The notes: generated from the letters alone by a model not told the origin. Counted from the stretch's first letter, positions 46,511 to 63,290 are shown. The stretch is DNA of 64,000 nt from Parcubacteria group bacterium (GCA_943356745.1 CALRFT010000001.1:11946-75945), one strand, 5' to 3'. Made by a program: numbers and translations.

Positions 46511-47269
46511 CTATAATAAATTTTGTATCTTTTCGTATTCTATAAACTTAAAGACTTGAAACGCCGATTCTTGAAATAGTGACCATTCATTAATAACAAG
46601 AAGAATTCCGATAATAAACATAAGTACGCCTCCCGTGATTGATAGAGCTTTGAAAAGCCGTGTATGTCTTTGGAAAAAGTTTTGTGAACGATGGTAGAGA
46701 AATGCTGAAAATATAAAAGGAATAGAAAACCCAAGTGAAAATACAAAAAGTAGAATTGCTCCTTGTAACGCTGTCCCCAGAGCTCCAGCAAGAACAAGTA
46801 CCGTTCCAAGTATTGGTCCAATACATGGAGCCCAACCGAGAGCAAAAATAGCACCAACTAAAGCAGATCCTTTAGGAGTTCCGACTTGAAGCCATGACGG
46901 ATTTTTAATTCGAGCAGTTATTTGGAACCAAGATTCTGGTATAACTTTGAGTATTGCTAAGGAGAAAAAAATAATCAGAGCTCCACTTATTTGAAGAAGA
47001 ATCGGGCGAAATGTCCCCCAAAAAGATCCAAATAATCCTAAAGTTAATCCGAGAATAATAAATACTGAAGAAAAACCAAGAACAAAGAATACACTATTTT
47101 TTCTTATTTGAGATTCCGCAAAAGATTTTGTTTCTAAATTTGTAATATCTTTATTTGAAACCCCAGAAATAAAAGCAAGATACCCTGGAACCATTGGTAA
47201 AGTACAAGGCGCCAAAAACATAAGAAGTCCTGATATGAAAGCTGGAGCAAGAAGACCAAGCACTAACAT
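46511..47269 (-). CDS. ccdA: cytochrome c-type biogenesis/thiol-disulfide transporter CcdA (DsbD core)
   Basis: LAPCTLPMVPGY and GWAPCIGPILG Cys motifs; six TM helices. Confidence 0.8.
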   Translation of the reverse strand: MLVLGLLAPAFISGLLMFLAPCTLPMVPGYLAFISGVSNKDITNLETKSFAESQIRKNSVFFVLGFSSVFIILGLTLGLFGSFWGTFRPILLQISGALIIFFSLAILKVIPESWFQITARIKNPSWLQVGTPKGSALVGAIFALGWAPCIGPILGTVLVLAGALGTALQGAILLFVFSLGFSIPFIFSAFLYHRSQNFFQRHTRLFKALSITGGVLMFIIGILLVINEWSLFQESAFQVFKFIEYEKIQNLL

Positions 47270-49588: not shown

Positions 49589-51154
49589 TTAAAATTTCAT
49601 AGTGTGTTTTGAAACACGAGAAGGTGATGTGATAGGTTTTACAGCCTTATCTTTTTCACCTTCTTCTTTATGGTGTTTCAAAAATCGAGCAGTTCTCTTA
49701 AGGTCGTTTGTAAAGTATAAAATAATTTTAACAAAGGAAGCAATTCCAACCACAACAAGAATTGCAATACCAAGGTAACTTACGAAACTAATTGCAAATC
49801 CAAGTAATTGAGATGGTTCAACTTTAAACGCAACTGGGTTACTTTGAAGCTTTGTATCTTCATTATAAGCTTGAACAAATGCTGTATGATATCCAAGATC
49901 AAGATGAGATCCTATAGCAAAACTAAACCTACCATCTCTATCAACAATTCCTTCTTCTGTATATACAACATTTCCCTTTCTTGTAAGTGTGAGAAGTAGC
50001 TTATTATCTGGTGTTCCGGAACCTTGAATAGTAATGATTTTTCCTTGTTCAATTTCTTCTGGATATTCTGTAATAATTGGTTTTGTAATGAGGGCTTCCC
50101 CAAAAGAAACAATCACTTCACGAATAGTTTGATTTCCCGCTTTATCAAAAGCAATTATCTCAATATTTTGTTCGCCACTATAGATAGGAGGAAGTTCGTA
50201 GTTTATTACCTCTTGCTCGTCAATTCTAATTATTTCGCCTCCACCAATCTTGATTTCATAATGTGAAAATCCTGAATCTATATCATCTGTTGTAAAAGTT
50301 AGTTTTGGAGAAGTATCTTCATTGTTTACTGAGACATCAAAATCTTGCGGTGGTTTTGTGTCAATATTTAATTTAAATCTTCCAACAGAACTCCATCCTG
50401 CGGTAGTTCTTGTTTGTACTGAGAAGTAATATGTACCCTCACCAAGATCTTCTATTGTTTTTGTCGAAACTGGAGGAATGTAACTTACTGTTGGTGTACT
50501 ATTTTGATTTCTACCAATCAAAAGCTTTGTTTCAAGAGCTCCTTGCGGTAACTCCCAATTAAATATAGCTGTTGTTTTGTTGTACCATCCATTTTGATCT
50601 GGATGTGTTTCTGAGCTTATGACAGGGGCATTATTATTTACAGGTTTTGGAGTTTCTGGTTTTGGTTCAACAAAAGCTTCAGTAATCGTGAAATTACCAC
50701 TACTCAAAGTACTTGCAATATTTGTACCAAGACCATCATTAGCAAGAATAGACCCTGAACTAAATTTAACCTGAGCAGTTCCAGGCGATTTTGGTCTAAA
50801 AGTTACAGAAAGAAGTTTACCCCCATTTCCAGAATATCCTGGATTCAACACAACTCCCTCAAAGTTAATCGTTCCGGCCGAATTTGAGAAACTTGGCTCT
50901 TGAACCCACAAAGAAAATATTGAACCAGTTTTTGAAATAGAAACTACTTCAAGATTATTCGTCGGAAATGTAATAACACCAGAAGATGCGTTCATGATTT
51001 GACCATCTGTGTTTGCAAGAAAATTAACAGTAAAATTTTTCCCTACCTGATACTGCCCACTCGAAGGAGACATTCCCAAAGACGCCGAGTGTGCAGTGGG
51101 CGCACTACTCAACATAAGAATCATTATTGAAAAAATAGAAAATATTTTTTTCAT
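49589..51154 (-). CDS. surface protein with cohesin-like N-terminal beta-domain, FN3/Ig-like middle and C-terminal TM anchor
   Basis: Signal peptide (AHSAS) followed by ...GVITFPTNNLEVVSI...SLWV...GTINFEG...VTF...GTAQVKF; C-terminal TM helix (AISFVSYLGIAILVVVGIASFV) and a basic tail. Confidence 0.55.
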   Translation of the reverse strand: MKKIFSIFSIMILMLSSAPTAHSASLGMSPSSGQYQVGKNFTVNFLANTDGQIMNASSGVITFPTNNLEVVSISKTGSIFSLWVQEPSFSNSAGTINFEGVVLNPGYSGNGGKLLSVTFRPKSPGTAQVKFSSGSILANDGLGTNIASTLSSGNFTITEAFVEPKPETPKPVNNNAPVISSETHPDQNGWYNKTTAIFNWELPQGALETKLLIGRNQNSTPTVSYIPPVSTKTIEDLGEGTYYFSVQTRTTAGWSSVGRFKLNIDTKPPQDFDVSVNNEDTSPKLTFTTDDIDSGFSHYEIKIGGGEIIRIDEQEVINYELPPIYSGEQNIEIIAFDKAGNQTIREVIVSFGEALITKPIITEYPEEIEQGKIITIQGSGTPDNKLLLTLTRKGNVVYTEEGIVDRDGRFSFAIGSHLDLGYHTAFVQAYNEDTKLQSNPVAFKVEPSQLLGFAISFVSYLGIAILVVVGIASFVKIILYFTNDLKRTARFLKHHKEEGEKDKAVKPITSPSRVSKHTMKF

Positions 51155-52023
51155 TGATGTTTTTTACGGTACACAACAACACCCGAAACTATTACAACAA
51201 TAAGTATACTAAATATTAGGATAAAATTCTCATCAAATATTTTTTCCTGTGGATGAACAACTGAAATTCTCTCATTCCCAGCAACGTCAACCGCTTTTAC
51301 AAAAATTGTTTTAAATAATTTTTGATCTTTTAAAACATAAGGACTTTGAACTTCTTGAAATGAACCAAAATATCCTTCTTTTACCTCATAACGAAGTATA
51401 CCAACTCCCTTATCTTGAGTTGCAAAAACTAAAACATTTCGACCATCATAGAGATTTTCATCTTGAGTAATGATTGGAGTAAAGTCTTCTGGTTTTTCTG
51501 TGTCTTTAGGGACAATATACTCTTGAGAAAAATTACCATCTTCTGATATGTAAATCTTTTTGTCTATAGAATTGATTTTATTTTCGGTTCCAATTCCGTC
51601 ATGAAGTAATACCGAACCACCTTCTGTAGAAATTCTTAATTCATCATCAGGATTTTGACCTCGTATTTCTAAAGAGAAAAGAAACAACGCACTTCCCTGT
51701 ATTCCCCCTGGGGTAATTCCTGAAAAGTAAATTGAATTTCCTTGAACTTCCGGTTTATCAACCCAGAAAAGTATTGAAGAGTTTCCTGTATTAATAGAAA
51801 TTTTTGGATCTTCGATTCCTTCTACCTGAATAGTTCCCGAAATTGTGTTAACAATATCTTCTGAGTCAAGCAAAACATCCACAACAACGGTGTCGTTTGA
51901 ACCATAAAGAGCATGGTTTGTTTCAAAAAAGAAACCCGCAGCAAAAACACTCAGTGGGATATTTAAGAATGAATACAAGAATATAAAAATGTAAATTATT
52001 TTTTTCATAATTAACCTGTCCAA
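51151..52023 (-). CDS. surface protein with cohesin-like domain and C-terminal TM anchor (paralog of the N-terminal domain of the 49589-51154 protein)
   Basis: Signal peptide, then TISGTIQVEGIEDPKISINTGNSSILFWV...IYFSGI...LFLFSLEIRG..., alignable to the N-terminal domain of the 49589-51154 protein; C-terminal TM helix. Its stop overlaps the next gene's start. Confidence 0.5.
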   Translation of the reverse strand: MDRLIMKKIIYIFIFLYSFLNIPLSVFAAGFFFETNHALYGSNDTVVVDVLLDSEDIVNTISGTIQVEGIEDPKISINTGNSSILFWVDKPEVQGNSIYFSGITPGGIQGSALFLFSLEIRGQNPDDELRISTEGGSVLLHDGIGTENKINSIDKKIYISEDGNFSQEYIVPKDTEKPEDFTPIITQDENLYDGRNVLVFATQDKGVGILRYEVKEGYFGSFQEVQSPYVLKDQKLFKTIFVKAVDVAGNERISVVHPQEKIFDENFILIFSILIVVIVSGVVVYRKKHQ

Positions 52024-53039
52024 TGATAAGCCATAATACTGAAATCGATAAGATCAATTTTGTTATCTCCATTAAGTTTTTGAGCTTCCACAAGAGAAAA
52101 TGATTGACTCAGTGTTCGTTTATACCAAAAAGCTGCAATTGAAAAATCAACAAGATTCACACGAAGGTCATTATTAAGATCTGCCTTTCTTGACGAATTT
52201 TGTAAATCAGAAGGGTTAAGGAAAACATTTGCGTCACCCACAATAAAGCCTAGTGCATTTCCAAAAGGACTTATTTCATTTCCAATTTGTGATTTAGACT
52301 TTGCCGAGTGAGAACCATAAGCAAGAAGTGCACTGTTAAAATTAAGTAGATACGCCCCATCCTGATCTGCTTCTTCCGTAACAAAATATGATGGCTCTGA
52401 GTTAACATTAATTGTAACCTCAGAGTTTGGTGTTGTTTGACCAAAAATACTAATAGTATCACCTCGTCTCACCTGGGACTTATCGAGCCCAATTGTTGGA
52501 GCAATAAAAATTCCACCGATACTTGTAGTAACTCCTGAACTAATGAAAATAGGAAAAGTAAATGGACTTGAAATAATTCCATCATCATCTTCACCATATG
52601 CAGAGAAAATATAATTTCCAGTTGAGAGACCACTTACTGTCACACTAAATTTACTATCTGGACCAGCAATTGTAGTTACAATGAGTTGTCCATCTTTCAA
52701 TATACTTACCCTACTAAGCGGATAGGCTCTTCCAGTAAGAACAACATTGGTTTCAGGAATGGAAGAACCTCCTCCACCGCCAGATGTATTTGAGCAAGAA
52801 GATGTATTAAAAGTACAAGAAACAGAACAAGATAGAGTTCCACTTGAAAAACCAAGGGAAACACAACTTGCCCCACCAAGTGAAGAACCGTCACATTGCT
52901 CTCCAATTCCAATAACCCCATCTCCACAACCTCCCACTGTTGCTGATATTTCAACAGTGATAGCCTGTAGATTATTTGGGGCTATAAGATAGAAAATTAT
53001 AAGAAATAAAGAAGTAGTTTTTGTAATAAAACCATACAT
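52011..53039 (-). CDS. secreted Cys-rich protein with C-terminal dockerin-type tandem repeat
   Basis: Signal peptide; CGDGVIGIGEQCDGSS Cys-rich repeat; the C-terminus has two segments, DLNNDLRVNLVDFSI and KLNGDNKIDLIDFSI, matching the dockerin pattern DxNxDxxVNxxD. Confidence 0.6.
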   Translation of the reverse strand: MYGFITKTTSLFLIIFYLIAPNNLQAITVEISATVGGCGDGVIGIGEQCDGSSLGGASCVSLGFSSGTLSCSVSCTFNTSSCSNTSGGGGGSSIPETNVVLTGRAYPLSRVSILKDGQLIVTTIAGPDSKFSVTVSGLSTGNYIFSAYGEDDDGIISSPFTFPIFISSGVTTSIGGIFIAPTIGLDKSQVRRGDTISIFGQTTPNSEVTINVNSEPSYFVTEEADQDGAYLLNFNSALLAYGSHSAKSKSQIGNEISPFGNALGFIVGDANVFLNPSDLQNSSRKADLNNDLRVNLVDFSIAAFWYKRTLSQSFSLVEAQKLNGDNKIDLIDFSIMAYHWTG

Positions 53040-53041
53040 GA

Positions 53042-54217
53042 CTAAATTCTTCTCTTAGGTTTTTGTAATGGTTTTTGAGTGGTTGGTTTTGAAATATCTT
53101 TAATAGAATGAGATGAGATGGTTGATGACACAGTTTGTTTTTTTTCTTGTTTCTCAATTGTTTTTTGAGAACTATTTTGTTGATTGTATATTCCAGCCTG
53201 TGACAAAACCCAGGCATTATATCTCTTGAGTATCATTTTAAATCCTTTTCCAAAAAGGAAAAATCCTAGCAATAAGATACTAAGTGCTTGCCATGGAATA
53301 ACAAAAAAATGATATGAGTCTTTTGCGTTTTGTGCTGATTCACCCCAAGTAATATCAAGTTTTGCTGTATACCAACCAAATTTAAAATCTTTCAATTGAA
53401 CTTTTACCGATTCGAAAAAACCAAGCTTTACAGGATTACCAGTATCATCAAGCTGTCTCTCATCTCCTAAATACACTTCGTATCGACGTGCACTACCAGG
53501 CAACACACTTCCTTCATTTTTATTAGCATTTACTTCCTCTGTTTTAAATCTAAAAGTATTTAAAAGAGAAACTGTTCCTCGAGGAACAACCCTGTCTCCC
53601 CCTGTGTTACTGAGCCTGTATTCCACGACAATAGGAGGGGTTGAAACAACACGAAGATTATTTTTAGTTGTAAAAGACACAAGTCCTCCACCTTCTTCAA
53701 TTTCACCATTTACCCGAAGCAAAATAAGAACTCCTACTTTCCCACCAACAGAAACCTGTCCACCTGACCCAGTTGGTGGTTGTGTACCGAAAAACACAGC
53801 GGCAAAATAACCTCCTGGTTTAGCAGAACTTGGGATTGCAATAGAAAAAGGAACCTTAACTTCTTCTGAAGAGGAAACAAGAACTGAATCAGTAGATCTC
53901 AGCCATGTAGCAAGCCCATCTTTAGCACCAATAAAATATGGCGCACCTGAGTCTCCTCTCGGTTCAAAATTTTCAAAAGAAACGTAGTAATTTTTTTGAG
54001 ATGACTCTCCAGCCGATTCATCAAAGAGTGCTATTTCTCCAGTGATTGTTTGGCCTGGATCACCTGATATTTCAAGACGAGCAGGAGAAACAGTAAGAGC
54101 AAACGCAAAAAAAGGAGCACTTATTGAGGCCAAAACAAAACCGAGTAGAATTATAAGTCTCCTTTTCATAGAAATAGTATATATTAAAATTAGAATTTTA
54201 GAAGTTTGCTGAAGCAA
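53042..54217 (-). CDS. surface beta-rich protein with C-terminal TM anchor and K/R/Q-rich cytoplasmic tail
   Basis: Signal peptide (APFFAFA), a body of about 280 aa, a TM helix (ALSILLLGFFLFG) and a long basic tail. The architecture resembles DUF916/DUF3324 CscA-type proteins (speculative). Confidence 0.5.
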   Translation of the reverse strand: MLQQTSKILILIYTISMKRRLIILLGFVLASISAPFFAFALTVSPARLEISGDPGQTITGEIALFDESAGESSQKNYYVSFENFEPRGDSGAPYFIGAKDGLATWLRSTDSVLVSSSEEVKVPFSIAIPSSAKPGGYFAAVFFGTQPPTGSGGQVSVGGKVGVLILLRVNGEIEEGGGLVSFTTKNNLRVVSTPPIVVEYRLSNTGGDRVVPRGTVSLLNTFRFKTEEVNANKNEGSVLPGSARRYEVYLGDERQLDDTGNPVKLGFFESVKVQLKDFKFGWYTAKLDITWGESAQNAKDSYHFFVIPWQALSILLLGFFLFGKGFKMILKRYNAWVLSQAGIYNQQNSSQKTIEKQEKKQTVSSTISSHSIKDISKPTTQKPLQKPKRRI

Positions 54218-55304
54218 GATATGTCAAAGTAGAGGAGTAGCTTCCAGCTTCTGTATTTGCACTAATGTTTGCGATATATCTTATTGAGTATGTTGTATCT
54301 GCGGTTGCGCCGGTAGCTGCTGCGAATTCATCTGGAAACGCAGCTGAATCAAAAGCAAATCCAGTAGATGCATATGGCGCAGATACTGTTCCTATTCCTC
54401 CTGAAGCAGTTGCTCTAATTCCAAACTGCTCTGTTCCAACAGAAGATGCTGTATTAGTAGAGCCAATAGCATCAATAGTATCTCCACCTGAAGTAAGTGT
54501 GGTTCCATTTAAAGAAAGAGTATATCCGTTTGAAGCATTTGTTCCAACGGTAAGTGTATGCGCTTCGACCTCAGAAGATCCTCCCGATGTATCACCTATT
54601 GCATATCTTGCAGCAGACGAAGAGAGACTTCCAAATCCAATAGTACTATCAGAAATTGTGAAAGTAATAGATTGAGCAACTGTTGCTGACACGGACACTT
54701 GGTCATCAGAAAGAATTGTTACTGAGATATTTCCAGAATCAGAAGCTCCAGCAGTAACAGCAATGGAATAAGTTGTCGCTGAAGATGGGTTTATATATTG
54801 AGAGTTCGTAGATCCACCTGTCGCATTTTCTCCTATCTCGATACACACCTCTGCTCCAACAGGAACTGTAGCAGACGCACCTCCTGATGTAAGAGTGAGG
54901 AGTCGATTTTCTGTAGTAGAAAACACAGCATTCCATTGAGAAGCTGTTGCACCTGACGCAACGAGTGTTTGCGCTGTTCCATCACAAATACCATCCGGGA
55001 CTGTATCAATCAAGAAATCAACATCACTAAAATCCAATGCACCCTGAGGGTCGTTTGATCCATCAAAATCTGATGGGAATGTGAGTGTTATTGTTTGCCC
55101 CGAAGCAACACCTGTTGGTGTTGTAAATTCGATTTCGTGATCGGATGCTTGGTTAACAGCGAGACGAGACATTATATCTGCAGCGTCAGTAATTGATGCA
55201 GCTTGCGCTACATAGAATGGAAAAAATGCCGTAAAGACTAAAATCGAGGAAGTAAGTACAGCGATTCCTTTTTGAAAGAATGAACTAAAAAATGCGTGCT
55301 TCAT
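54198..55304 (-). CDS. secreted Ser/Thr/Gly-rich surface protein sharing a C-terminal ~170-aa domain with the 1041-aa protein
   Basis: Signal peptide (YVAQA/AS). Its C-terminal domain (TISDSTIGFGSLSSSAARYA...TEQFGIRA...AFDSAAFPDE...AGSYSSTLTYLASANF) is homologous to 55402-55950. Confidence 0.55.
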   Translation of the reverse strand: MKHAFFSSFFQKGIAVLTSSILVFTAFFPFYVAQAASITDAADIMSRLAVNQASDHEIEFTTPTGVASGQTITLTFPSDFDGSNDPQGALDFSDVDFLIDTVPDGICDGTAQTLVASGATASQWNAVFSTTENRLLTLTSGGASATVPVGAEVCIEIGENATGGSTNSQYINPSSATTYSIAVTAGASDSGNISVTILSDDQVSVSATVAQSITFTISDSTIGFGSLSSSAARYAIGDTSGGSSEVEAHTLTVGTNASNGYTLSLNGTTLTSGGDTIDAIGSTNTASSVGTEQFGIRATASGGIGTVSAPYASTGFAFDSAAFPDEFAAATGATADTTYSIRYIANISANTEAGSYSSTLTYLASANF

Positions 55305-55345
55305 AAATAAAAGTTATTAAATAATACCTGTTTATTATACCAAAC

Positions 55346-55380
55346 AAAAAACAATCTTTCTGGATTGAAAGATTGTTTTA
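55346..55380 (-). terminator. intra-cluster terminator between the 1041-aa and 368-aa genes
   Basis: acaatctttc-tggatt-gaaagattgt followed by a T-run on the minus strand; a TATAAT follows 31 nt before the next ATG. Confidence 0.55.
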
Positions 55381-55401
55381 TTGTGGATATCTTATTCATT
55401 A

Positions 55402-58400
55402 TTAATAGCTCGCTGTTACAGTATATGTCAAAATTCCGTTATAAACCCCCGCTTCAGTTAAACTTGTAATGTTACTGAGATATCGTACTCCATACTCTGT
55501 TGGAGTATTATCACCACTTCCAGTCGCGATTTGATCAGGAAACGCGGCTGCATCAAAAGCAAATTCAGAAGCTTGATTATATGGAACAGAAACAGTACCA
55601 GTACCCGAATTCACAACAGCGCGAATTCCAAATTGCTCCGTACCGGGAGAAGAAGCGGCAGATGTTCCGCCTATTGAATTAATAGTTGCTCCACTGCAAG
55701 CATTACACGTGAGTGTTGTTCCATTAACAGTCAAAATATATCCTCCACTTGCATTTGTTGAAGCAGTTACAGTATGAGCGTCAGAAGAATCAGTTCCAGA
55801 CCCAAGAGTATCCCCTGTCGCATATCGAGCGCTACTTGGCGAAAGAGAACCAAACCCAATCGAGTTATCTGAAATGGTCATTGATATTTCTTGAACACCT
55901 CCAGCGGCTGCTGTGGTAATTTCAGGATAGTTTGTATAGGTATCAAATAAAGTACCACTAGTAGCCCCAACCACTCTAAAACAAAATGTTGTTTCAGGAT
56001 TTGCTCCATTATCACGTAAAGCAAAATCCCATTTGCCACTTTGACTTTGATTGGTGATGGAAGCTTGGTTGTTTGTGAATGGATTAGACTCAACATAACT
56101 TTGATTTACAATCGTTCGTCCACCGTCTGTCGGATCATTAGCATTTGGCGTAAGAGCTGCATCATCTGCCGGTGTCGGGTTATCCTGAAATGCAATAGAA
56201 GTCACACTAGTCACGTCAGTATACACAGCAGGTGTTCCACCGCTTGGAGATGCGCAAGTACCAGTTCCCTTGTCTACATACTGGAGTTTGAAATTTTTTC
56301 CATCAACAAAAAGATTTCCAAAATCATTTCGTATATTCATTCGAAGACGAAATACCTGATTGGTACTCGAAAGCGTTGCAGGAGTATCCTGAGCCGCAAG
56401 AACAGACCCCACATCTTGAGTATCTACATTTTCAAAAAATCTATACGTAGCCTGAGTATAACGCTTTGCATTCCATGCAGCAAAATCATAGGTGAAAGTA
56501 TTTTCATTTGAATCTACTCCAGTACCAAGACTAAATCCGTTTGAGATAAGATTTGTAATTTGATTTGTAATCGAAGGAAGAGCGAGAAATTGCGATGTAC
56601 TATCCCCTGTTTGAACAGAGGTACGAAGTAGAGCTCCCCGAGCTGTTCCACCCGTACGTTTTTTTATCCAGACAAGATCTGGCTGAAAACCAAGTGAGGT
56701 AATGTTTCTCACAGTACCGTTTCCTGTATAGGTTCCCACGCAAAAGGTTCCATCTTCAGTACAACTATTTCCCCCAAACATGAAATATGGAATTCGGATT
56801 GCGTTAACATTAGCAGCATTTGCACTTCCTATTTGAAAACCATCAGAGTTAAATGCTTGTATAAGATTCGAAGTAGAAGCCCCAGCATTAAATAGATTAG
56901 AAATATCTTCAACCATAGAACTTGTACGCCATGGAGAGAAGTTATTTGATAATGATTTGATTGTCACAAAATCTGGCTGAAATGGAAGCCTGTCTATATT
57001 TCTATTATCTTGAACATTTCCAGAATAAGCTCCTATTAAAAAATCAGAAGCAGTACCAACACCATCTGATTGAGATGCGTTACCAAACGCGGTCCAGTAA
57101 TAGGTATCTCCGGCAGTGTTTACTGTTGGACTTGTTCCTACTGAAAAACTATTGGTACCGAGAGCGGTAACACCCCCAGTAAAGTTAGAAAGTGCGAGAG
57201 CGAAATATCCGGTTGAATTTTGTCCTATACCTCGATGAGCCCAGACCGCCGCCTGGTCTGTGGCTTGATCTCTATGCTTTACAATAACTAGATCCGGATT
57301 AAAAGGAAGCCCTGCCACAGAAAAAGCAGCACCTGTTCCAGTATATGAACCGTTTATCATCCGAAACCTTCCACTGGTATCAAACGCCGGCTCAGGTGCC
57401 CCTCCAAAAACACCATAATAAGTAGTAACACCATTTACATTAACACCACTAGTTGAACTACCTACTTGAAACCCTCCTGTGCTAAAAAGTCTTTGGATAA
57501 TATTTGCCGACCCGGCAGCGTCAGTTGAAGGCATTGTAAAGTCACCATAAGATGCACGAAAATTTAAAAATCCATTTGTGGCTCCGGCTCCTTTTGCAAC
57601 CACGAAATCAGGCTGAAAAGTAAGTGCTGTATCGTCTGAAGAATCTATATTATTGTTATCGAGTCCATTTCCCACAAAAGAACCTGCCTTAAATGCTCCA
57701 GGGGTATTTTTAAATGCAAAATAATGATAGGTGTTTGCCGCGGTATTTACGGCGGCATTACTACCGATAGAAAATCCATTTGAAAGAATACTGTCTATTG
57801 CTCCCGATGCGATATCTGCCCCACCCCACTGACTTGAAACCGTACCACTATGGACACTTGTTTTAAACACCCCAATACTCCCACCCGCGCGCTTCACAGA
57901 TACAAAGTCTGGCTGGAAGCCGACAGAGGTAATATTTTGAGAAGTACCATTCCCAGTATAAGACCCAACACAAAAAGTCCCAGAAGAGTTACAATCTGAT
58001 CCACGAAAAGCAACCCAATAATATATTGTAGTGTTAGCGTTTACATCGCTGTCATTTCCGACTGTAAATCCATCACTATTGAAAGACTGAATGTGGTTGG
58101 TGGTGAGGTTTCCATCTGTCTCCGCCCAAGCCAAAGAAAGCTCCCCAGTCATAGTAGAAGTCTTGACCACCATCCCCTCACTACCCCCTGCGTCAAAATC
58201 TTTTACGATCACCATTTGAGGCTGAAAACCAACCTTGGTGATTTGTCGATTATCGACACCATTTCCCACATAGTATCCTGTTTGTATTTGAAAGGTAGCA
58301 GCATTTGCACGTTCCACCTCAGGCTGTAAAAGATGTCCAATGTGTCTATCCACCAGATTACCTTTTTCTTGGGTTGCAATATACAAAAGGTCAACAACAT

Positions 58401-58527
58401 TTCTATCTTCAATTTTCTGAGTTACGAAGTCTATCATATCTTGAGACGGGAAACCAGAAAAAAACATCGCAAACGCAAGTGTAAAAACCGCACAATATCG
58501 ATATATTTTTTTAATAATTTGCAACAT
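55402..58527 (-). CDS. large secreted repeat protein (1041 aa) with six GNG...GFQPD repeats and a conserved C-terminal domain
   Basis: Signal peptide. Repeats fit G(S/T)YxGNGxxxNITxxGFQPD(F/L)VxxK alternating with SNGFSxGS...TY(H/Y)YFAF. The C-terminal roughly 170 aa are homologous to the 368-aa neighbour. Confidence 0.6.
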   Translation of the reverse strand: MLQIIKKIYRYCAVFTLAFAMFFSGFPSQDMIDFVTQKIEDRNVVDLLYIATQEKGNLVDRHIGHLLQPEVERANAATFQIQTGYYVGNGVDNRQITKVGFQPQMVIVKDFDAGGSEGMVVKTSTMTGELSLAWAETDGNLTTNHIQSFNSDGFTVGNDSDVNANTTIYYWVAFRGSDCNSSGTFCVGSYTGNGTSQNITSVGFQPDFVSVKRAGGSIGVFKTSVHSGTVSSQWGGADIASGAIDSILSNGFSIGSNAAVNTAANTYHYFAFKNTPGAFKAGSFVGNGLDNNNIDSSDDTALTFQPDFVVAKGAGATNGFLNFRASYGDFTMPSTDAAGSANIIQRLFSTGGFQVGSSTSGVNVNGVTTYYGVFGGAPEPAFDTSGRFRMINGSYTGTGAAFSVAGLPFNPDLVIVKHRDQATDQAAVWAHRGIGQNSTGYFALALSNFTGGVTALGTNSFSVGTSPTVNTAGDTYYWTAFGNASQSDGVGTASDFLIGAYSGNVQDNRNIDRLPFQPDFVTIKSLSNNFSPWRTSSMVEDISNLFNAGASTSNLIQAFNSDGFQIGSANAANVNAIRIPYFMFGGNSCTEDGTFCVGTYTGNGTVRNITSLGFQPDLVWIKKRTGGTARGALLRTSVQTGDSTSQFLALPSITNQITNLISNGFSLGTGVDSNENTFTYDFAAWNAKRYTQATYRFFENVDTQDVGSVLAAQDTPATLSSTNQVFRLRMNIRNDFGNLFVDGKNFKLQYVDKGTGTCASPSGGTPAVYTDVTSVTSIAFQDNPTPADDAALTPNANDPTDGGRTIVNQSYVESNPFTNNQASITNQSQSGKWDFALRDNGANPETTFCFRVVGATSGTLFDTYTNYPEITTAAAGGVQEISMTISDNSIGFGSLSPSSARYATGDTLGSGTDSSDAHTVTASTNASGGYILTVNGTTLTCNACSGATINSIGGTSAASSPGTEQFGIRAVVNSGTGTVSVPYNQASEFAFDAAAFPDQIATGSGDNTPTEYGVRYLSNITSLTEAGVYNGILTYTVTASY

Positions 58528-59494
58528 ATTGATAAATAACCGACGAAATTTCTTTCATAATCATCTCCGCATCTTGGCGAGTTTTTTCTGATGGGACATC
58601 TATCATGAGAGTAATAAGATAAGGTCTATTTGGCACATAGACAATACCTGAATCAAGATAGATTGTATCTAAATCATTGATACCTATTTTATGTGCAAAG
58701 GTCACACCCTCTGGTATGCCGGCATCCAAAAAAGTATTAAAGTAGGTACTTGATAGTATTTCTAAAAGTGTTGTAGAGTGTTGTCTTGAGAGATAACTTG
58801 AGGTATACAAAGCACGAAAAATTCGAGTATATTCTCGCGCTGTAACTCTGTATTGAGAATCATAAAAATCACTAAACCCTAAAGCGTTGAAAAGTTCTTC
58901 ATATCCATCTTCGGACAGATTTCGAAGAAATATTCTGTGTGCGGTGTCATCTGAATTCACAAGAAGCTCAAATAAAAGCTCTTCTATAGTAAGTCGTGTA
59001 CCTACCGGCTCTTGATACAATTCTCCAAAATCACTATTTCTATCTTCCATAAAAAGTACTAGTTCGTTGGAAAGCTTCCATTCCCCATCTTGAATTTTTT
59101 TCATCACCACAAATGCTGTCGGCATTTTTGAAAGAGATGCTGGGAAAAATCGCTTTTCTTCATTTATAGAAATACTTGCCCCTGTGTTAAGATACTCAAA
59201 ATATAACCCTATCTCAAAACCCTGCGCTTCATATTCTCCAACACGGGAAACCAAATCACGCCGAATAGGTTCTATCGTTGTGAAAAAATGCTCCTGATCG
59301 ACAAAGCTTCGAGAAGCTTCGATGAGAGGAAAAGGGTTGATATAATCTTCGGACTTCCTTTCTCTTAGAAATAAAAATCCCCATACAATATTTGTACACA
59401 CAAAAACAATCAAAAATATCAGAGATATTTTTTTTGAATTCCACCAAGGTGTTTTTTTATTATTACTCTTCTCTTTCATATGATTAGTTTTCAA
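58511..59494 (-). CDS. membrane-anchored serine hydrolase, class A beta-lactamase / low-molecular-weight PBP-like
   Basis: SLSK (SxxK), SDDTA (SDN-like) and a KIG (KTG-like) triad with correct spacing; N-terminal TM helix. Confidence 0.6.
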   Translation of the reverse strand: MKTNHMKEKSNNKKTPWWNSKKISLIFLIVFVCTNIVWGFLFLRERKSEDYINPFPLIEASRSFVDQEHFFTTIEPIRRDLVSRVGEYEAQGFEIGLYFEYLNTGASISINEEKRFFPASLSKMPTAFVVMKKIQDGEWKLSNELVLFMEDRNSDFGELYQEPVGTRLTIEELLFELLVNSDDTAHRIFLRNLSEDGYEELFNALGFSDFYDSQYRVTAREYTRIFRALYTSSYLSRQHSTTLLEILSSTYFNTFLDAGIPEGVTFAHKIGINDLDTIYLDSGIVYVPNRPYLITLMIDVPSEKTRQDAEMIMKEISSVIYQYVANY

Positions 59495-61772: not shown

Positions 61773-62600
61773 TCAGTTCCTACATAAACTATTACGCACT
61801 TCTTGTATATTTCTTTCACTTGGATATATAAATTCTTTATTTGGTGGAACAACAGGATCTGAACCAAGTATCTCAAGATAGATTCCCTCTTCTTCAAATG
61901 ATTTTTGAAGATTTGTTTTTGGTTCTTTAAACTCTCCAGCAAGAGGAAACCAAGGGATAAACGTACATGCCTTAAATGTACTTGAATCTTCAATATTTCC
62001 AATAATTCTAATATTCTGAACTTGAGACAAAAGTTCCCTATCAACCTCTGGAATATTTGCAATATCAATATTCCACATAATATCTTTGTTATCACGAATA
62101 ACAAGGCTATTATCTTTTATTGAAATAATCACCCCAGAAAGCAGGCCGTCTTCAGGATTGCTCCATCTATTTTCGATTTGATTTGGAACAGCTTGATATG
62201 TAGAAACTCGTTTCCCAATTGCATTATCTACAAAAGAACCAACTTTAACAGCAAATAAAACAGACCCGAGAATTAAACTTATAACGATAGAAGAACTTAT
62301 AATTATCCACCATTTATATTTATATCCTTTTTCTGTTGTTCTTACGAAAAAATGAGTAGCTAAAATAAGAACAGATAGTGAAAGTATCCAAAGTATTGGA
62401 AGAGCTTTCAAAAAGCCACCAAGTTCAATAGCGTTAGCAAAAGAAAAAAGAATAACAGAAAATGAAAGACTACCTAGAAAAATTGTAAACACAACTAAAA
62501 ACCACAGTGATATTTTTTTAAGTAAAAAATATAACTTTGTCCTTGGTGTGATTGTATTGTCTTTTATTTTCTCTAAAATATTATTTTTAATTGAAGTCAT
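61773..62600 (-). CDS. anti-sigma-factor-like membrane protein
   Basis: Immediately downstream of, and overlapping, the ECF sigma gene; four TM helices and an extracytoplasmic C-terminal domain. Start chosen at MTSIKNN. Confidence 0.45.
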   Translation of the reverse strand: MTSIKNNILEKIKDNTITPRTKLYFLLKKISLWFLVVFTIFLGSLSFSVILFSFANAIELGGFLKALPILWILSLSVLILATHFFVRTTEKGYKYKWWIIISSSIVISLILGSVLFAVKVGSFVDNAIGKRVSTYQAVPNQIENRWSNPEDGLLSGVIISIKDNSLVIRDNKDIMWNIDIANIPEVDRELLSQVQNIRIIGNIEDSSTFKACTFIPWFPLAGEFKEPKTNLQKSFEEEGIYLEILGSDPVVPPNKEFIYPSERNIQEVRNSLCRN

Positions 62601-63168
62601 ATATTGTATTCCAGTATGTAATAAATTCTTTTTTTGCACGAGATACAAGTGTTGCGATTGTACCCATGGGCTTTTTTAAAATATCTGATATTTCTTCATA
62701 GCTTTTCTCTTCAAAAAATCTCAAAATTATTATTTGTCTATATCCGTCTGACATTTTTCCAACAACAGTTTCTATTTGTTCAGATAACTCAGTAGTATGG
62801 ATATCTTTTAAAATATCAACTTCTGAAGCAAAATTTTGCAAAGCTATATCTTCTATTTCAACCAAACCCTTTTCTTTTTGTGTTTGCTTTTTTCTATGAA
62901 GACTAACCACATGATTATGACAAATTCGGTATATCCAAGATGAAAAAGAAAGTGAAGTATCAAAACCACGAAGATTTTCATACGCCTTAATAAAAACATC
63001 TTGAACAATATCTTCGGCTTCGTGTTTTGGTATATATGTTATTCGCCTTACATATCGAAGAAGTTTTTGTTCATATCTATCAATAAGTTCACCAAAAAAC
63101 TCCGGATTTTCCTGGAGTGTCTTATGAGCAATTTCCTGATCTGAAATATGTTGAATATCTTGACTCAT
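62587..63168 (-). CDS. RNA polymerase sigma factor, ECF (sigma-70 region 2/4) family
   Basis: Region 2 (DIVQDVFIKAYENLRGFD...SWIYRICHN) and region 4 (SYEEISDILKKPMGTIATLVSRAKK). Confidence 0.85.
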   Translation of the reverse strand: MSQDIQHISDQEIAHKTLQENPEFFGELIDRYEQKLLRYVRRITYIPKHEAEDIVQDVFIKAYENLRGFDTSLSFSSWIYRICHNHVVSLHRKKQTQKEKGLVEIEDIALQNFASEVDILKDIHTTELSEQIETVVGKMSDGYRQIIILRFFEEKSYEEISDILKKPMGTIATLVSRAKKEFITYWNTIYDFN

Positions 63169-63290
63169 GAATATAAACGTATTATACACGTTGTATATTA
63201 TTACGCGCATGTTCCATATTTATTTCATTATTTGACAAACTAATACAATCATAGTAATCTAGCAATCAAACCCTTTAATTTTTAAATAAT

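Follow-up and report, generated by a model that had tools for sequence, protein, structure and literature searches.

A probable Pam-type pilus operon with a large, tail-fibre-like tip candidate in a Parcubacteria group bacterium

Attachment to other microbes is the way of life of bacteria of the candidate phyla radiation (CPR), and little is understood of the means by which a host is recognised and held. Among fibres specific to the CPR (Patescibacteria), the first to have a structure is the Pam pilus, a donor-strand-exchange fibre that cryo-electron microscopy (cryo-EM) of Ca. Mycosynbacter amalyticus revealed in 2026, with models only for the tip and the mode of anchoring (bioRxiv 10.64898/2026.03.03.709456). 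The C-terminal domain (CTD) of the Pam pilin accepts a strand of the neighbouring pilin, and the fibres contain stretches of two different pilins, PamA and PamB. The same operon encodes PapD/FimC-like chaperones (PamC/PamD) with a C-terminal transmembrane (TM) helix, a CTD-only tip (PamT), and a donor-only terminator (PamR) made of an N-terminal strand, two fibronectin type III (FnIII) domains and a TM helix (bioRxiv 10.64898/2026.03.03.709456). Here we describe a locus in a 64,000-nucleotide stretch of DNA from a Parcubacteria group bacterium (GCA_943356745.1, CALRFT010000001.1:11946-75945; the whole stretch is called the window, and positions are counted from its first letter), in which two neighbouring genes encode proteins of 1041 and 368 aa that end in a common domain. 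These two genes probably encode subunits of a Pam-type pilus, with the giant protein at the tip and the 368-aa protein, below called the pilin, in the shaft.

A second system that invites comparison is formed by the WxL gene clusters of Lactobacillales/Bacillales, in which the WxLIP protein (DUF916/DUF3324) has a TM helix and is predicted by AlphaFold to complete the beta-sandwich of WxL with one of its strands; WxL proteins are described as peptidoglycan-bound platforms (PMC10599100). The Pam preprint makes no mention of WxL (bioRxiv 10.64898/2026.03.03.709456), and a literature search found no paper that combines the WxL domain with 'donor strand'; in a wider search on WxL with strand exchange, filaments or chaperone-usher, WxL is mentioned in none of the top-ranked results.

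The giant-subunit gene (55402..58527, minus strand) and the pilin gene (54198..55304, minus strand) are open reading frames (ORFs) that correspond exactly to genes called on the 518,649-bp metagenomic source contig, and the pilin ORF starts 97 nt downstream of the 1041-aa ORF. AlphaFold2 (AF2) models were obtained for both, for the giant protein from an alignment of 33 full-length homologues (predicted local distance difference test score, pLDDT, 87.9; predicted template modelling score, pTM, 0.73) and for the pilin, which has 931 homologues, from 48 of them (pLDDT 89.8). The giant protein runs from an N-terminal hydrophobic segment through six DUF7483 repeats and a middle beta domain to the Pam pilin CTD, and the pilin from a signal peptide, typical by inspection and ending VAQA/A, through an N-terminal beta-sandwich and a candidate donor strand to its own CTD. 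In the pilin model an N-terminal signal helix is followed by strands at residues 39-198 (the N-terminal domain), a low-confidence block at 201-210 and strands at 213-365 (the CTD).

The shared CTD carries the assignment to the Pam family. Residues 879-1041 of the giant protein (55405..55893, minus strand) and residues 211-368 of the pilin (54201..54674, minus strand) align with 56% identity and 72% positives over 163 columns (E 9e-45 with compositional matrix adjustment), so that the common C-terminal domain of about 170 aa reported in a preliminary description of the window, made from the sequence alone, is confirmed. Both proteins exceed the 55-bit cut-off of the NCBIfam model NF058581 (CPR_Pam_pilin_C, 'Pam pilus system pilin subunit'), the pilin with 85.7 bits and the giant protein with 66.5, and the model matches 39 of 39 related CTDs (best E 1.5e-39). 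The 240-bit cut-off of the PamT equivalog NF058579 is not reached (44.4 and 33.8 bits); neither window protein is CTD-only, and the family hidden Markov model (HMM) found no third CTD protein or PamT-like CTD-only gene in the window. Run against 1.84 billion representative proteins, a profile of the two CTDs picks up 767 clusters (E <= 1e-3), and in all 150 best matches of the 767 the domain lies at, or a few residues from, the C-terminus of proteins of 121-3243 aa, the shortest of which are fragments; the earlier idea that a single module is joined to different passengers therefore holds for the family as a whole. The short 'CTD-only' representatives are mostly contig-edge fragments, with only P0478 and P0485 looking complete. 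Real, too, is the terminal motif ...AG(S/V)Y...LTY...A(N/S)(F/Y), which is kept across 39 aligned homologues, all ending on an aromatic residue.

Going by its membership of NF058581, the CTD is an incomplete (truncated) immunoglobulin (Ig)-like domain. A polymerising module of the donor-strand type, as had been proposed, agrees with a domain that passes the NF058581 cut-off and belongs to a family seen by cryo-EM to accept strands (bioRxiv 10.64898/2026.03.03.709456). The more specific proposal of an unpaired C-terminal strand acting as the donor finds no support, since that strand is in the DSSP strand state in both monomer models. In Foldseek searches of the PDB, the whole 1041-aa model gave poor matches to Ig-like/MG strings (integrin, complement C3), with FimH-FimG at E 5e-3, and the pilin model had as top matches the two-Ig MSCRAMM adhesins SdrE, ClfA and SdrG (E ~1e-6, TM-score 0.2), a likeness that we set aside as generic Ig-like similarity.

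Cell-wall binding by a WxL-type domain had also been suggested for the common module. Under such a scheme of surface display the CTD would hold both proteins on the cell wall without building a fibre, and the 375-aa protein encoded directly downstream of the pilin would be a WxLIP-like stabiliser that inserts a strand. WxL clusters do follow the same operon logic, in which a small and a large protein have their C-terminal domain in common and are accompanied by one that ends in a TM helix (PMC10599100), and WxLIP_PGBD is the Pfam family that collects the most matches among members of the 375-aa protein's family, weak ones (4 of 37, best E 0.011). Matches to WxLIP_HBD are found in 2 of 48 pilins (E 0.077), and in Foldseek PDB 9i25_C, 'WxLIP bound to long WxL', comes up for the pilin model at rank 44 (E 3.5e-3). 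All of these WxLIP matches, however, are at noise level, and Pfam WxL (PF13731) matches neither window protein nor any of the 48 homologues at E <= 1, their terminal motif being LTY. Searches of PDB sequences with both proteins and with the profiles of the CTD and of the 375-aa family found nothing meaningful, 9i25 included, and no evidence for cell-wall binding was found. Moreover, the CTD lies over the curated Pam pilin cut-off in a family whose members form filaments in cryo-EM, and the distribution of donor-strand motifs over three gene classes, given below, has no role under pure anchoring. Surface display of the WxL kind is thus distinctly improbable in our judgement, and a Pam-type fibre is the reading that we follow.

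The operon was compared across 80 loci found in a scan with the pilin alignment, using one genome per GTDB species; gene families were assigned by HMMs built from our own alignments, and C-terminal TM helices were scored by a Kyte-Doolittle scan. Those loci that carry a name belong to Paceibacterota/Parcubacteria lineages (Nomura-, Kaiser-, Magasanik- and Doudnabacteria). A conserved gene order emerges, consisting of a variable CTD protein, one to three pilins, a chaperone-like protein, a homologue of the 342-aa window protein and homologues of the 275-aa and 508-aa window proteins. The variable CTD protein, of which the giant protein is the window copy, stands upstream of the pilin in 53 of 69 loci and ranges from 253 to >3200 aa. 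Every one of the 74 loci with room for it has the chaperone-like gene directly downstream of the pilin, while the 342-aa homologue is present in 56 of 69 and the 275-/508-aa cohesin-like homologues follow downstream in 53 of 66. In first-gene proteins without DUF7483 repeats, the domains that can be recognised, where there are any, are Gly_rich_2, Laminin_G_3 or G8.

The likely donor strand was located from its recurrence across these gene classes. In pilins, (DD)QVxVxATV stands directly upstream of a conserved QSLTFSISDNxIGFG strand, and the window pilin has it as DDQVSVSATV (residues 200-209; 54678..54707, minus strand). Confidence in the model of the mature pilin is low only in the block 201-210 (pLDDT 57), as would be expected of a strand that lacks its partner in the monomer. 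The pattern h-x-h-x-[AGS]-x-h precedes the CTD in 74 of 84 pilins versus 0 of 58 first-gene proteins, the 1041-aa one included: the giant protein carries YPEITTAAAGGV where pilins have the donor motif, and this position is occupied by the hinge EITTAAAGGV (residues 869-878; 55894..55923, minus strand). The minimal subunits P0478 and P0485, built of a signal peptide, a QVxVxATV-type strand and the CTD, likewise begin with this strand once mature. As ITVEI(S/T)ATV it is the mature N-terminus in 53 of 54 orthologues of the 342-aa protein, versus a background of 12%, and these have no CTD. Since pilins, minimal subunits and the 342-aa orthologues share this strand, we propose QVxVxATV, between the N-terminal domain and the CTD, as the likely donated strand.

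From these motifs a fibre can be sketched in which the CTD groove of each subunit would be completed by a beta-strand from the next. The pilin has both donor strand and acceptor, so it would donate as well as accept and would build the shaft. An acceptor domain without a donor motif would leave the giant protein only the first, most distal position, as a tip adhesin whose passenger of six DUF7483 domains and one beta domain may offer the host cell an array of receptor-binding domains. The membrane-anchored 375-aa protein is most likely the chaperone, a putative one, and would cap the groove until strand exchange. With the donor strand ITVEISATV but no acceptor domain, the 342-aa protein would end the fibre at its base, where its C-terminal dockerin could tether the fibre to two cohesin-like TM proteins. 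The repeats, the common domain with its family, the conserved operon, the distribution of the motif and the TM and domain content are directly shown by the analysis; from these we infer the subunit order, the identity of the donated strand, the chaperone function, the dockerin-cohesin anchoring and the adhesion by the passenger.

The place of the giant protein could be read otherwise. Both proteins might be ordinary shaft pilins like PamA and PamB, in which case the giant protein would be built in at positions along the length of the fibre, its repeats standing out to the side. The mixed fibres of M. amalyticus would be a precedent for this, proteins of pilin size (300-400 aa) make up about half of the first-gene products in related loci, and the giant protein keeps both a beta domain in the place of the pilin N-terminal domain and a conserved strand, QEISMTISDN, before its CTD. 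Eight strands make up this middle beta-rich domain in the AF2 model, where it extends over 689-871 (feature boundaries, residues 690-868; 55924..56460, minus strand); it shows no profile similarity to the N-terminal domain of the pilin (hhalign probability 0.1%), and its HMM ('mid') also matches other first-gene CTD proteins that are without DUF7483. It speaks against a shaft position that none of the 58 first-gene proteins has the QVxVxATV-type strand common to pilins, minimal subunits and the dockerin protein. The first gene is also single-copy per operon with a hypervariable passenger, and a terminator-like hairpin lies between the giant gene and a promoter-like element of the pilin. Taken together, a second shaft pilin is rather unlikely, and the tip remains the position that we favour for the giant protein.

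The hairpin (55348..55379, minus strand) has a 13-bp stem and a T-run and lies directly 3' of the giant gene as a consensus match only. A few bases after it comes an extended -10-like element, TGGTATAAT (55334..55342, minus strand), read from the sequence 30 nt upstream of the pilin ATG; the pattern scan, in which no -35 had to match, did not list it. This arrangement suggests a separate, stronger transcription of the pilin, and the two elements between the giant and pilin genes, as pattern matches only, would fit a low-copy tip and a high-copy shaft.

The passenger of the giant protein is dominated by six tandem repeats of about 100 aa (residues 78-689; 56461..58296, minus strand). Cutting the protein at the recurring G(S/T)YxGNG motif delimits units 78-180, 181-274, 275-383, 384-493, 494-589 and 590-689, and BLASTP with composition-based statistics aligns 14 of the 15 unit pairs at E <= 1e-3 (best 6e-25, identity 20-45%). 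The six motif copies noted previously are therefore six tandem units, and compositional bias, which had been named as the possible refutation of both repeats and shared domain, is ruled out because unit pairs and CTDs align at low E values (6e-25 and 9e-45) under composition correction. The motif itself had been thought novel; it is that of Pfam DUF7483 (PF24299), which matches six stretches of the protein (E 2.9e-35, 122.4 bits versus a gathering threshold of 27), a family of which a literature search found no mention. The repeats also match PHROG families, namely phrog_24898, 'tail fiber protein' (E 1.1e-40), and a 'virion structural protein' family. Two motifs formerly described as alternating elements turn out to be the halves of one unit, as every unit holds both G(S/T)YxGNG...GFQPD(F/L)V..K and S(N/D)GF..G...VN...Y.F. 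A beta-propeller or beta-helix, the fold suggested at that stage, is not supported either. Each unit has about eight strands and is all-beta in the AF2 model, and a single unit superposes on stand-alone viral proteins of 110-117 aa (TM-score 0.72-0.74, root-mean-square deviation ~2 A, best 1.9 A). Because one unit alone matches such proteins, the model makes the repeat an autonomous, tail-fibre-like all-beta domain, neither a propeller blade nor a helix turn.

This viral likeness raises the question of whether the giant protein is a prophage-derived tail fibre that resembles its neighbour only incidentally, and besides the match to phrog_24898 its model also matches phage DUF7483 proteins among the predicted viral structures of BFVD (Foldseek, E 5e-38). 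No other phage family was found, however, among the four operon proteins scanned against PHROGs, and the Pfam domains of the neighbouring genes on the source contig are all cellular. The protein itself combines an export-type hydrophobic N-terminal segment with the Pam CTD, repeats and CTD occur together in at least 28 homologues, and an equivalent fusion has an equal operon position in another species (locus L004, the only other one among the 80 with a DUF7483 version of the first gene). We hold a prophage remnant to be extremely unlikely.

Two further features of the giant protein were observed. By inspection, its N-terminal hydrophobic segment is followed by about 45 conserved residues and then an AxA site; this stretch (…FPSQ.LIDF…IEDRNVVD.LY…LL.P.V, before AxA/ATF; within residues 1-77, 58297-58527, minus strand) occurs in roughly one half of the homologues that were aligned, the rest having a plain signal peptide that ends at AxA/ATF. 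It is helical by prediction, with low confidence, and could be a signal anchor or a pro-region. Cys-x6/7-Cys loops, SDCNSSGTFCVG and NSCTEDGTFCVG, occur at the R1/R2 and R5/R6 junctions only (residues 176-187 and 585-597; ~57967-58002 and 56737-56775, minus strand) and are likely disulfide staples between repeat domains. C179 and C186 are invariant in 33 homologues. The conserved cysteines of the pilus proteins also include an invariant C849, C941-x-x-C944 in the giant CTD and C107/C155 in the N-terminal domain of the pilin.

Directly downstream of the pilin lies the chaperone-like gene (375 aa; 53042..54169, minus strand), whose product has a signal peptide, an ectodomain of about 260 aa, a TM helix (residues 288-307) and, on the cytoplasmic side, a basic tail; the C-terminal TM helix is found in 81 of 84 orthologues. 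Next comes the dockerin-bearing gene (342 aa; 52011..53039, minus strand), encoding a signal peptide, the N-terminal strand ITVEISATV (nt 52935-52961), a Cys-rich module, the Ig-like Big_6 domain and a C-terminal dockerin-like repeat. At family level Dockerin_1 (PF00404) is matched by 33 of 36 members (best E 1.8e-11) and Big_6 likewise by 33 of 36, and a C-terminal TM helix is absent in 56 of 59 orthologues. The last two genes encode a cohesin-like protein of 275 aa (51151..51978, minus strand) and a cohesin-like/Ig-like protein of 508 aa (49589..51115, minus strand), with C-terminal TM helices at residues 246-272 and 436-470, respectively, as presumed membrane anchors. In their family Cohesin (PF00963) is matched by 18 of 50 members (best E 2.1e-9), and 89 of 100 have a C-terminal TM helix. 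The window holds a putative cohesin-dockerin pair (49589-53039, minus strand) that would belong to a pilus operon of the CPR and not to a cellulosome.

Several points weigh against the pilus as reconstructed here. Filaments have not been observed either for this organism or for the Paceibacteria-type operon, and strand donation, groove occupancy and subunit order are read from motifs only; PDB searches found no Pam structure for direct comparison. The giant protein retains the conserved QEISMTISDNSIGFG strand, and if that is the strand donated, it could occupy any position in the fibre; its N-terminus, with some 45 conserved residues before the AxA site, is not a textbook signal peptide. The 375-aa protein matches no NCBIfam or Pfam chaperone family, and its family shows no profile similarity to E. 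coli FimC (hhalign probability 0.1%). The window copy of Dockerin_1 scores 20.1 bits versus a cut-off of 22.9, and Cohesin is not matched in the window copies; because these copies fall under the Pfam cut-offs, dockerin-cohesin tethering is the weakest step of the scheme.

Upstream of the operon, a gene with the class-A beta-lactamase fold (PF13354, E 6.8e-37; 58511..59494, minus strand) shares 17 nt with the start of the giant gene, and such a gene adjoins the operon on the same strand in 14 of 61 related loci. Its product might remodel peptidoglycan for passage of the fibre, a specific role that nothing supports. About 3 kb upstream of the operon there is an extracytoplasmic function (ECF)-type sigma factor gene (Sigma70_r2/r4) with an overlapping gene for a multi-TM protein (61773-63210, minus strand), which could be its anti-sigma factor. 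The operon is flanked by disulfide-handling genes, encoding DsbD-like membrane proteins, thioredoxin and a DsbD_TM-MsrA/MsrB fusion (window 46511-47269, minus strand; locus L001, 1-2168). A second layout, seen in loci L030, L037, L050, L061, L065 and L072, consists of a pilin, a chaperone-like gene, another CTD protein and one or two more chaperone-like genes, is without the dockerin and cohesin genes, and is nearer to the two-chaperone arrangement of M. amalyticus. Loci L016, L044, L071, L076, L079 and L068 come from records titled 'uncultured Gammaproteobacteria' or 'Bacillota', which are probably mislabelled or contaminated metagenome-assembled genomes and not true occurrences outside the CPR.

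The shared domain and the repeat both have database families already, and the system as such has been known since 2026. What appears to be new relative to the Pam preprint, on computational grounds, is the tail-fibre-like DUF7483 array fused to a Pam CTD as a likely tip adhesin, the distribution of motifs into acceptor-only, both and donor-only proteins, the dockerin-cohesin module and the abundance of this operon type in Paceibacteria. The system appears to be common in Paceibacteria/Parcubacteria. In this locus and the 80 related ones, a sequence code predicts the positions of the subunits, and the hypervariable, often tail-fibre- or lectin-like protein would be the tip that recognises the host, so that tip passengers could mark the host range of uncultured CPR bacteria. 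The locus also adds a different mode of anchoring, through a dockerin-cohesin pair that would hold the fibre.

Compared with the WxL clusters, the operon is alike in having small and large secreted proteins with a common CTD and an Ig-like partner with a C-terminal TM helix, a strand of the partner being predicted to complete the sandwich. It differs in having no WxL motifs, no Pfam WxL match and WxLIP matches at noise level only, and WxL proteins are described as platforms, not fibres. A tblastn search of the chaperone-like protein against plasmids at E <= 10, aimed at WxLIP genes, found no match. One may speculate that CPR Pam and Firmicutes WxL/WxLIP are two branches of one ancient monoderm surface assembly, usher-less and strand-complemented. 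In its favour, both have small and large secreted proteins with an open-groove C-terminal beta-sandwich in common and a membrane-anchored Ig-like partner that inserts a strand, and the Paceibacteria-type operon has a simple sequence code (acceptor-only tip, donor-plus-acceptor shaft, docked donor-only base). We give this kinship only a small chance; if it is real, the capacity to form donor-strand fibres, or to nucleate them, could extend to the WxL proteins of enterococci, listeriae and lactobacilli, and Pam-like assembly would be far older and wider than the CPR.

The closest system remains the Pam pilus of M. amalyticus, with which the locus shares the CTD at sequence level, the pilin layout of signal peptide, N-terminal beta-sandwich, linker strand and CTD, a chaperone-like protein with a C-terminal TM helix in the operon, a presumed donor-only protein with an N-terminal strand, the lack of usher, sortase or ATPase, and the restriction to CPR. 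There is one chaperone-like gene here in place of two (PamC/PamD), and it is without a match to a named chaperone family. The tip candidate is a protein of 1041 aa with six DUF7483 repeats, whereas PamT is CTD-only. In contrast to PamR, which has a TM helix, the presumed donor-only protein here is without one and bears a dockerin, with two cohesin-like TM proteins encoded after it. Anchoring of subunits by a sortase-type LPXTG sorting signal with a TM helix is not seen: the last residues of the pilins read ...LTY(V)ATANF, and none of 89 pilins and none of 58 variable CTD proteins has a C-terminal TM helix.

With the chaperone-usher pili (FimH/PapG, FimA/PapA, FimC/PapD, PapH) the operon would share the logic of an acceptor-only two-part tip, a donor-plus-acceptor shaft, a groove-capping chaperone and a dedicated terminating subunit. 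At the level of profiles the CTD shows no such likeness to FimA (hhalign probability 0.9%), and no Usher or PapD Pfam family is matched in the eight operon and flanking proteins or in 37 members of the chaperone-like family. Unlike those pili, this one would have no usher and no outer membrane, its chaperone-like protein is membrane-anchored, and its candidate donor strand lies between two domains and not at the N-terminus, except in the minimal subunits. Phage tail fibres with DUF7483 (PF24299; phrog_24898, phrog_19943) have the same all-beta repeat of about 100 aa in tandem arrays, whereas the array described here is fused to a pilus assembly domain and an export signal and belongs to a conserved cellular operon.

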